From a virus (Duplodnaviria > Caudoviricetes): a DNA stretch of 64,000 nt. The stretch's first letter is position 1; the number at the start of each line of letters is the position of its first letter. Shown here in pieces: positions 52,083 through 53,399 of the stretch. The notes under the pieces are model-generated. The model was given only the letters and a program-made list of their open reading frames with translations, ran no database searches and had not been told where the DNA came from. Where the stretch lies: the IMG/VR virus record IMGVR_UViG_3300033463_004542, positions 34,092 through 98,091 of that record, one strand, 5' to 3'. Both the position numbers and the translations under genes were made by a program.

Positions 52083-53399
52083 TTACCAAGACATGAAAAG
52101 TTCAGCACCGCCATCTTTTGCTAAACTATTAAACCAACTATCTGCAGAAAATTCTGCAACAGTTCCATCTGTGATATTATGAACTCTTATATAATATCCC
52201 TTGTTAGCATACTCATTTGCGAGTTCATTGAGAGCATATACATCTGAAGTTTCAGCAGATTCGGCTAAACCTCGCTTCTGGTCATCGTAATAGCCTTCAA
52301 TAAGAAACTCCTCGTCTAATTCAGGGTCTTTTGAACAAGTTATATCTCCACAAGCCTCTACATCATCACTATCGGAGAAGAATTTTCTATTAGCATATTC
52401 AAGAGCTCGATTCAAACTATAAAATGGATTCTCAGAAACTTTCCATATCTCGCCAACATTTCCATTAGCTTTTCTATAAGCATACTGGATTTCATAATAT
52501 CTTCTATCTTTTTCATTATAGAACATATCAATCCAAACATAACCAGAATCATTAGGTAATGCCTTGCAAATAGTACCCCAATTTCCTTCCTCGTCATCAC
52601 CTTCTGGGATAATCTCCCACCCTGCAGGGACAGATGGGTGTGATTTTGTAGATGCTGTTATATCTCCGCAAGCTTCTACATCTTCATCATCTTCGTGAAA
52701 TTTGATAAATTGCTTAAATGCTTCGAGAGCCTTTTTGCTCAGATGTTCAAAACAATCATCTTTTATCCACTCATCTGCACGGAGATTATTTATATCTGAA
52801 AGAAGTTCATGATACATGTCTTCATCATAGTGTTCTTTGTTGGCAATATAATATGCCCAATCTTCTTCGTCATATCTATCAAATGATTTAGAATCAAATC
52901 CATACGGTTCATCAATATCAAGAGAAGATGTTACTTTACTGCAAGCCTCTACACCTCTTTCTTCTAAACTCTTTTCTGCATTATCTCGTACACATCTATC
53001 ATCATCATCTTGAGATAATTTAACTAATATGTCATAGGGTGTATTTGGATTTCTTGCCACATAAACTCTAGTTAGTTCTCCATAATCTAACCCATAAGTA
53101 TCTTCGGATAATTCTTCCAATATCTCAACAGGAGTATTGGGATTTTTAGCTATGAATCTTCTTGAATTAACACTACCAAACTTATCTAAGATTAATCTAA
53201 GTAACTTAGGGTCTGCTGAATTGCTGGCTGCTCTTTCAATACTATCAATAACAGAATTTCTAGGAGATATTCCCCATTTTCTTGAACGGTCAAAGTCAAT
53301 ATAGCCTTGACGATTTAATTCTTTTACAAGTTCAGGGTCCTGTAAAGAGTCTTTGATATCTTCTTGAGTCAGTTCTGAAGATTTTACATATATTTTCAT
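52083..53399 (-). CDS. Leader-tagged apparent polyprotein (MKIYVKSS) with LRV/HEAT-like repeats and three VEAC linkers
   Basis: Two A.NPNTP..IL..LS.D repeats; linkers VEACSKVTSS, VEACGDITAS, VEACGDITCS. Confidence 0.8.
   Translation of the reverse strand: MKIYVKSSELTQEDIKDSLQDPELVKELNRQGYIDFDRSRKWGISPRNSVIDSIERAASNSADPKLLRLILDKFGSVNSRRFIAKNPNTPVEILEELSEDTYGLDYGELTRVYVARNPNTPYDILVKLSQDDDDRCVRDNAEKSLEERGVEACSKVTSSLDIDEPYGFDSKSFDRYDEEDWAYYIANKEHYDEDMYHELLSDINNLRADEWIKDDCFEHLSKKALEAFKQFIKFHEDDEDVEACGDITASTKSHPSVPAGWEIIPEGDDEEGNWGTICKALPNDSGYVWIDMFYNEKDRRYYEIQYAYRKANGNVGEIWKVSENPFYSLNRALEYANRKFFSDSDDVEACGDITCSKDPELDEEFLIEGYYDDQKRGLAESAETSDVYALNELANEYANKGYYIRVHNITDGTVAEFSADSWFNSLAKDGGAELFMSW

Follow-up and report, generated by a model that had tools for sequence, protein, structure and literature searches.

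The gene at positions 52083..53399 on the minus strand of the window, by which we mean the whole stretch of 64,000 nucleotides (nt) of phage DNA analysed here, raises the question of why one viral protein should be a chain of unrelated domains, joined by copies of a single short connector and preceded by an N-terminal peptide with the same core. Our current working hypothesis is that the gene product is a polyprotein of cargo proteins that is processed by the phage head protease, and we consider this reading reasonably probable. The coding sequence is a single uninterrupted open reading frame (ORF) in the ORF listing, begins with the tag M-K-I-Y-V-K-S-S and is made up as follows.

52083..53399, minus strand: whole polyprotein gene, 438 residues and a stop codon, preceded at 8 nt by an AAGGAG ribosome-binding site

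53376..53399, minus strand: N-terminal tag M-K-I-Y-V-K-S-S, presumed to be cut after V-K-S

52959..53375, minus strand: cassette 1 (LRV), residues 9–147, an LRV/HEAT-like repeat domain (Pfam LRV, E 9.5e-9)

52923..52958, minus strand: connector 1, residues 148–159, R-G-V-E-A-C-S-K-V-T-S-S

52686..52922, minus strand: cassette 2 (S), residues 160–238, helical and acidic

52650..52685, minus strand: connector 2, residues 239–250, E-D-V-E-A-C-G-D-I-T-A-S

52368..52649, minus strand: cassette 3 (C), residues 251–344, an alpha/beta domain

52332..52367, minus strand: connector 3, residues 345–356, D-D-V-E-A-C-G-D-I-T-C-S

52086..52331, minus strand: cassette 4 (A), residues 357–438, an alpha/beta domain

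The three connectors are 12 residues long, lie 91 and 106 residues apart and consist of two tandem half-sites, V-E-A-C followed by [VI]-T-[SAC]-S. A preliminary description of this DNA had claimed repeated VEAC linkers behind the M-K-I-Y-V-K-S-S tag at a spacing of about 90–105 residues, two tandem [IV]-x-small-small sites in each linker with the same core as the tag, and a first domain of LRV/HEAT repeats. All of this holds: the three connectors were located in the ORF translation, both sites were found in each, and LRV repeats in the first segment are the only Pfam match on the query. Among the ORFs of at least 50 residues in the window, the connector core occurs three times in the polyprotein ORF, and two other matches to its regular expression, in short plus-strand ORFs, are spurious. 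The tag, in the form M-K-x-Y-[IV]-[KRS]-[SA], starts 14 minus-strand ORFs of the window, the polyprotein included; tagged ORFs make up 14 of the approximately 130 in the 98-kb viral record (G000) to which the window belongs, and there are about 15 in the relative G001.

That the connector is a unit in its own right is clear from related proteins. A protein search retrieved about 55 metagenomic homologues of 250–760 residues, each covering 18–57% of the query, and in every one of them this connector links cassettes that are unrelated to one another. The consensus of about 120 clean copies is D-[DE]-[VI]-[ED]-[AS]-C-[DG]-x-[VI]-[TMK]-A-S, and with so many recurrences the repetition is not due to chance. 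Cutting the homologues at their connectors and clustering the pieces gave about 40 cassette families in 97 distinct neighbour pairs, with a connector at every joint. The chains keep to a loose frame, namely a common first cassette, nought to six middle cassettes in no fixed order and a common last cassette. The query, with the order LRV–S–C–A, lacks the common first cassette; its fourth cassette, A, closes the chain in 50 of the clustered segments and is last in nearly all of the homologues, and the LRV cassette is internal in P0008 and P0014. There is typically one polyprotein gene per genome, with two adjacent in some cases. A tblastn search of GenBank phages gave no polyprotein homologue, and DNA scans with the consensus connector gave one locus in IMG/VR and five in JGI metagenomes, of which those checked belong to the same family.

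Related genes share blocks of 90–94% DNA identity with edges within about 20 nt of connectors, and whole cassettes are inserted or replaced between the blocks (L010 against L014; L012 against L004). The connectors demonstrably act as recombination joints, and linker repetition alone is therefore no proof of proteolysis. The gene could encode an uncleaved multidomain protein whose connectors are flexible tethers and mainly serve as in-frame DNA recombination joints, much as the pre-toxin motifs conserved in polymorphic toxins do, the likeness between connector and tag being due to descent from fused tagged genes. The position of the block edges fits this explanation, and so does part of the codon usage: when 26 connectors from nine genes (the window gene, L003, L004, L006 and L010–L014) were compared with the rest of the same genes, Ala was encoded by GCT in 34 of 43 connector positions and Val by GTA in 27 of 35, against 38% and 39%, respectively, elsewhere. 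However, synonymous codons for Cys (16/10), Glu (13/7), Thr, Ser (three codons) and Ile vary in the connectors about as much as in the background, so that at most connector residues the third codon position changes and the amino acid does not, which argues that selection acts on the peptide. We take the connector peptide to be under selection, with some inheritance at the DNA level in addition. The degenerate junctions likewise preserve the peptide [VI]-x-A-S and not the DNA. An uncleaved protein is, in our judgement, rather unlikely, and the recombination of cassettes at connectors would in any case be compatible with cleavage as an additional role.

The preliminary description had proposed a search for stand-alone tagged homologues of each segment between the linkers. 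All four have such homologues, as emerged from a search for shorter proteins and an exhaustive HMMER search in which cassettes S and C were the queries.

LRV cassette, stand-alone and tagged: the genes adjoining polyproteins in L012 and L013

Cassette S, stand-alone and tagged: P0141, P0144, P0146, P0148 and P0150

Cassette C, stand-alone and tagged: P0143, P0147 and P0138

Cassette A, stand-alone and tagged: P0124, P0121, P0122 and P0126, the tag aligning at the connector position

For each of the four cassettes, the end of the tag in the stand-alone protein and the end of the connector in the polyprotein differ by only a few residues in the alignment. The tags are of two styles, M-K-x-Y-[IV]-K-[SA] and M-(K)-R-K-F-T-K-Y-P-S-x-[IV]-T-A-S, and in a third lineage the tag is M-K-R-L-V-A-A, with the [VI]-x-A core kept; all that the three styles and both connector halves have in common is [VI]-x-[AS]-small. 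The stand-alone tagged proteins contain one occurrence of the core motif where about two are expected, a difference that is not significant.

Two single-cassette genes carry a fossil half-connector at the C-terminus. P0150 (L024:679-1389) ends in D-V-E-G-C and three further residues, and its stop codon is followed by a 45-nt spacer with AAGGAGG and then by the next tagged gene; this arrangement seems to capture a moment in the fission or fusion of tagged genes and polyproteins. The other is a 176-residue gene (G000:C1:32098-32628, minus strand), which lies about 1.5–2 kb before the start of the window, directly upstream of the head protease gene, and carries the tag variant M-K-R-K-F-T-K-Y-P-S..I-Q-A-S. 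Its cassette (family Q) is the first unit of the polyproteins P0005, P0018 and P0029, its end consists of D-V-D-A-C and remnants of the junction found, as a rule, before cassette A, and about 450 nt beyond the stop codon are without an ORF; the gene resembles a shortened polyprotein lying within the head module. Such fossils imply that fusion and fission of tagged genes are ongoing, and the high frequency of these events that fossils and split forms indicate would also suit an uncleaved protein. A C-terminal D-V-E-A-C tag as a distinct element was considered and rejected, only these two genes ending in this way and both looking like broken polyproteins. Cassette Q is present in the window as well, at residues ~127–233 of a tagged 545-residue protein without a connector (43473-45110, minus strand), where it is 48% identical to P0029.

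Which protease might cut at the shared core is suggested by the head genes of the record. The capsid protein is of the Gp23 family (PF07068, E 2.3e-22), and directly upstream of its gene, outside the window, is a 487-residue ORF (G000:C1:30177-31640, minus strand) with an N-terminal Peptidase_S77 (gp21) domain. The PF03420 match of this ORF is above threshold (27.5 bits, cut-off 27; E 9e-8) and phmmer against PDB sequences found no match, but the fold search did recover gp21: with an AlphaFold model of the protease domain built from seven homologues (mean predicted local distance difference test, pLDDT, of 65), the top PDB match was T4 gp21 (5jbl; probability 1.0; template modelling (TM) score 0.59 on target), and herpesvirus proteases came far down. 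Five [VI]-x-A-small sites fall within the first 90 residues of the capsid protein, the last site directly preceding the conserved mature N-terminus, and five more are found in the protease ORF, in a coiled-coil, scaffold-like tail; a conserved I-A-A-S stands just past the protease domain and a V-T-A-S about 50 residues from the C-terminus. Genome-wide, the core motif has a density of 0.23 per 100 residues, and the proteins richest in it are those of the head module. Six related capsid proteins (60–86% identity) keep the sites in place with changed letters (V-E-A-S to V-A-A-S; I-T-A to I-M-G), and the protease tails of those relatives have 5–10 sites each. The match between the linker core and a cleavage motif in the tag, as first proposed, is thus extended to the clusters of the capsid propeptide and of the protease/scaffold tail, which share this core and are presumably maturation sites. 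Because the presence of the same core in a capsid propeptide and a scaffold tail, both unrelated to cassette swapping, would stay unexplained by recombination, we regard the recombination-joint role of the connectors as a second property and not as a competitor of cleavage.

Cutting by the head protease has itself to be weighed against cutting elsewhere. A true polyprotein might be processed in the cytoplasm by another host or phage protease, its products remaining unpackaged and the tag acting as a processing or stability signal. Such a scheme could dispense with the packaging that we propose, and would suit a gene that stands outside the head module among lysis, regulator and small unknown genes; the sequence [VI]-x-A-small also fits the -3/-1 rule of signal peptidase. 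Yet no hydrophobic signal segment lies ahead of any site, the motif is concentrated in the capsid propeptide, the scaffold tail and small head-module genes, and cassette family Q is encoded directly upstream of the protease together with a tag and a fossil connector, and we consider processing in the cytoplasm improbable. A lipobox or signal-peptidase substrate was rejected on inspection of the sites, which follow acidic stretches or a four-residue basic start and no hydrophobic segment. As a separate observation, a 142-residue protein encoded outside the window (G000:C1:22470-22898, minus strand) has a very acidic centre and basic ends, with two V-R-A-S close to the N-terminus, and I-A-A-A together with V-A-A-S close to the C-terminus; its core-motif density is the highest in the genome (2.8 per 100 residues), and it may be a core or scaffold-type substrate of the head protease.

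The nearest cultured phages by capsid, at about 27–31% identity, are Bacillus phage HSE3, Streptococcus phage GXN1 and Listeria phage LIS04. The capsid propeptides of HSE3 (L023) and GXN1 (L022) contain T4-like L-x-E sites and no [VI]-x-A cluster, and no conserved L-x-E sites were found in the capsid propeptides of the present clade; since the cultured relatives use L-x-E, the Ala-type code looks derived in this clade. A complete, smaller relative, G007 (122,492 bases with direct terminal repeats; L040–L046), has Ala-type propeptide sites in a capsid protein of 60% identity and has only two tagged genes, with no connector and no polyprotein, and the protease code therefore seems older than the tag expansion. 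A test of covariation in distant relatives failed, G006 and G007 sharing the capsid site type and having no cassette-4 homologue. The absence of capsid and protease genes from G001 (175,559 bases; L026–L034), which is rated 100% complete, would be a counter-example; it was set aside after comparison of whole records, in which the contig ends of G001 excise exactly the head module, its last bases aligning to G000 at about 24.1 kb and its first at about 40 kb. With the ends falling around the head module, the absence of these genes is uninformative and the completeness estimate misleading.

The folding of the chain was examined by structure prediction. An AlphaFold model of the 438-residue protein was obtained from a mosaic alignment of 24 sequences, in which cassettes C (pLDDT 80–96) and A (85–91) are modelled as independent domains, cassette S is helical (about 60–70) and the pLDDT is below 50 at residues 238–249 (connector 2) and 345–358 (connector 3); the predicted TM score is 0.33. 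The preliminary description had anticipated independent domains with disordered linkers, and this is what the model has at connectors 2 and 3. Function is less easily read from the cassettes: PHROGs gave no match for the query, Pfam and PHROGs searches of the query and ten large homologues gave no cassette function beyond LRV, and a Foldseek search of the whole model against PDB gave no match below E 0.05. The ESM Atlas returned only sub-threshold leads with scores below 0.9 (small viral hypotheticals, Imm51, LPD16/25, Nmad4 and Tad6), among which there is a weak structural lead to the LPD16/25 and Imm51 clusters (TM 0.54–0.62).

To see how the motif is distributed, each cassette family was represented by a single sequence, 4,001 residues in total. 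All 12 occurrences of [VI]-x-A-[SCA] are at junctions, including degenerate ones missed in splitting, and inside cassettes there were none where 3.8 were expected from shuffles, in a test of low power; the absence of the core from cassettes is not what an uncleaved chain would lead one to expect. The degenerate junctions retain only the [VI]-x-A-S half, the Cys half being gone, and this is relevant to another explanation, in which the connectors work through their Cys (by binding metal, by a disulphide or thioester, or by a self-cleaving N-S acyl shift) or D-V-E-x acts as a 2A stop-go peptide. Cys is the most conserved residue of the connector, and D-[VI]-E-x is like the start of the 2A motif. 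Each connector, however, has a single Cys with no His or second ligand, Ser replaces the Cys naturally in some (for example in P0021 and P0023), some junctions are without the Cys half entirely, and the connectors are disordered in the AlphaFold model; the connectors accordingly do not look like the structured Cys-metal site that the preliminary description had named as a possible refutation of cleavage. The N-P-G-P part, which is essential for 2A, is absent from all connector copies, which read D-[VI]-E-A-C-[DG]-x, and 2A was rejected; it is not known to work on bacterial ribosomes. Self-splicing by an intein or Hint domain was also rejected, Pfam scans having found no intein or Hint blocks. 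Overall, Cys-centred chemistry and 2A-like recoding are highly unlikely.

We return to the hypothesis of a cargo polyprotein processed by the head protease, and propose that the 7–8-residue N-terminal tag would bring the whole chain into the assembling prohead, in the manner of the T4 capsid targeting sequence. Once activated, the gp21-type protease with its scaffold-like tail would cut each [VI]-x-[AS]-small site on the C-terminal side of its [AS], that is, in the capsid propeptide, its own tail, the tags and, twice, each connector of the polyprotein. Cutting would free four proteins with predicted masses of 16.6, 10.4, 11.6 and 9.4 kDa, three hexapeptides and the tag; the predicted products are all acidic, which is not distinctive because the whole proteome is acidic. 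The freed proteins would remain in the head and enter the host along with the DNA. A connector would mark a functional boundary and at the same time supply about 30 nt of semi-conserved DNA, so that recombination there would give viable new combinations of cassettes, and from their turnover we would guess that the cassettes are host-directed effectors. The sequence analysis has established the motif and its conservation, the positional equivalence of tag and connector, cassette shuffling, connector disorder and the fold of the protease; from these we infer cutting, the identity of the enzyme, packaging and ejection. A more specific form of the proposal is that the clade has re-tuned a gp21-type protease to a herpesvirus-like [VI]-x-Ala, that a 7-residue tag and 11-residue double-cut connectors serve to load small effector cassettes, in any number and in equimolar amounts on a single tag, for release in the head and injection, and that the connectors double as joints at which the injected set is reshuffled between phages; taken as a whole, we offer this as a tentative possibility.

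Several points weigh against processing by the head protease. The clustering of motifs is our sole guide to the presumed cut specificity of this protease clade, and the argument is therefore partly circular. Cys occupies the first half-site in about 87% of regular-expression matches, and the need for a small residue alone does not explain why it is near-invariant. Given the over-use of GCT and GTA and the position of the swap breakpoints, conservation of the connector may partly be DNA-level inheritance or recombination. The nearest cultured relatives, at about 30% capsid identity, have sites of the L-x-E type and are without the tag. Few homologues extend over the LRV part and connector 1, which are therefore poorly modelled, and the avoidance of the motif inside cassettes comes, as noted, from a low-power test. 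Lastly, as the searches gave no cassette a function, the label 'cargo' is by analogy. We conclude that the feature is real and striking and that the mechanism is plausible.

The polyprotein gene occupies a hypervariable slot in the genome of an uncultured T4-like phage. The 98-kb IMG/VR record is estimated to be 58% complete, and its relatives reach 175–197 kb; a holin and a CHAP/PG_binding endolysin encoded in relatives suggest a Gram-positive host. The slot is syntenic: tail-tube, lysis, helix-turn-helix and NADAR genes precede it and a conserved untagged gene of 88–91 residues follows it, and in the relative L005 it holds separate tagged genes, stand-alone cassette A among them. Just upstream of the polyprotein, in the same gene string, a 548-residue fusion (53940-55586, minus strand) has PHROG matches to a homing-endonuclease-like zinc finger in its N-terminal part and to a DNA methyltransferase in its C-terminal part. 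The nearest exact AATCGTTATA motif, at 55663-55672, is upstream of the polyprotein and precedes this fusion gene. Between the polyprotein and the upstream tagged gene, which it overlaps, a 76-residue ORF (53439-53669, minus strand; GTG start as listed) is possibly a real small untagged gene.

Similar arrangements are known from several systems. T4 gp21 removes targeting peptides of 10–20 residues from internal proteins and cuts scaffold proteins many times, and head proteases cut their substrates at multiple sites (PMC5694885); the internal proteins of T4 are a diverse, hypervariable set with only the targeting sequence in common (PMC3012670). Like T4 IPI-III and Alt, the proteins described here are unrelated, small and of fast turnover, share a short conserved N-terminal peptide ending in a (here presumed) protease cut motif, and are encoded together with a gp21-family protease and a gp23-family capsid protein. 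They differ in that the presumed site is [VI]-x-[AS] before a small residue and not the [LI]-x-E of T4, in that the tag is unrelated to the T4 targeting sequence, and in that several putative cargo units are joined in one chain with presumed internal double sites, which has not been described for T4. The giant phages phiKZ, 201phi2-1 and SPN3US have a gp21-related protease that cuts many head proteins, ejected proteins being among the products (PMC5694885). The protease family, the short motif and the frequent occurrence of several cuts per substrate are points of likeness; the cuts there are at [SAG]-x-E and shorten the long propeptide of one protein at a time, whereas those proposed here would part unrelated, independently folding and interchangeable cassettes.

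The polyvalent proteins of phages and conjugative elements (Iyer, Burroughs, Anand, de Souza, Aravind 2017, PMC5512222) combine 2–15 unrelated domains in mosaic chains whose architecture varies greatly, and it has been proposed that they accompany the DNA and are cleaved into active fragments (PMC5512222). The present protein resembles them in its long mosaic chain and in the highly variable architecture among its relatives. In contrast to them, no MuF, zincin-like MPTase, ParB-like or LPD domains were detected by Pfam and PHROGs in the query and the ten large homologues, there is no embedded peptidase, and the cassettes are small (50–170 residues) and joined by one explicit connector that matches the presumed sites of an external protease. 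[quoted passage not shown] Assemblin and gp21 share a protease fold class, cutting after the Ala of [VL]-x-A resembles the core found here, and the phage protease is fused to a scaffold-like tail with the same layout of release and maturational sites (I-A-A-S and V-T-A-S). Herpesviruses belong, however, to a different branch of the virus realm and their substrates are scaffold only, and the similarity in specificity is deduced. The query thus works like the T4 system and the polyvalent proteins and is by sequence a member of neither, and in full-text literature searches neither a polyprotein built from such a tag and connectors nor a gp21-type protease with Ala specificity was found to have been described.

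It is interesting to speculate on what such a system would mean for these phages. If the connectors are cut, they would represent a natural polyprotein strategy in a tailed phage, in which one tag loads several interchangeable proteins into the capsid. The cut-site code would then be unlike that of all characterized gp21-type proteases and would mirror that of herpesvirus assemblin, and HSE3 and GXN1 could be tractable comparison systems for the change in protease specificity. The approximately 40 cassette families would be new families of candidate injected proteins, and the tag and linker would form a very compact toolkit with which to package several foreign proteins in phage heads. Finally, if the hypothesis is true, recombination at functional boundaries would explain how the proteins that are delivered with phage DNA diversify.

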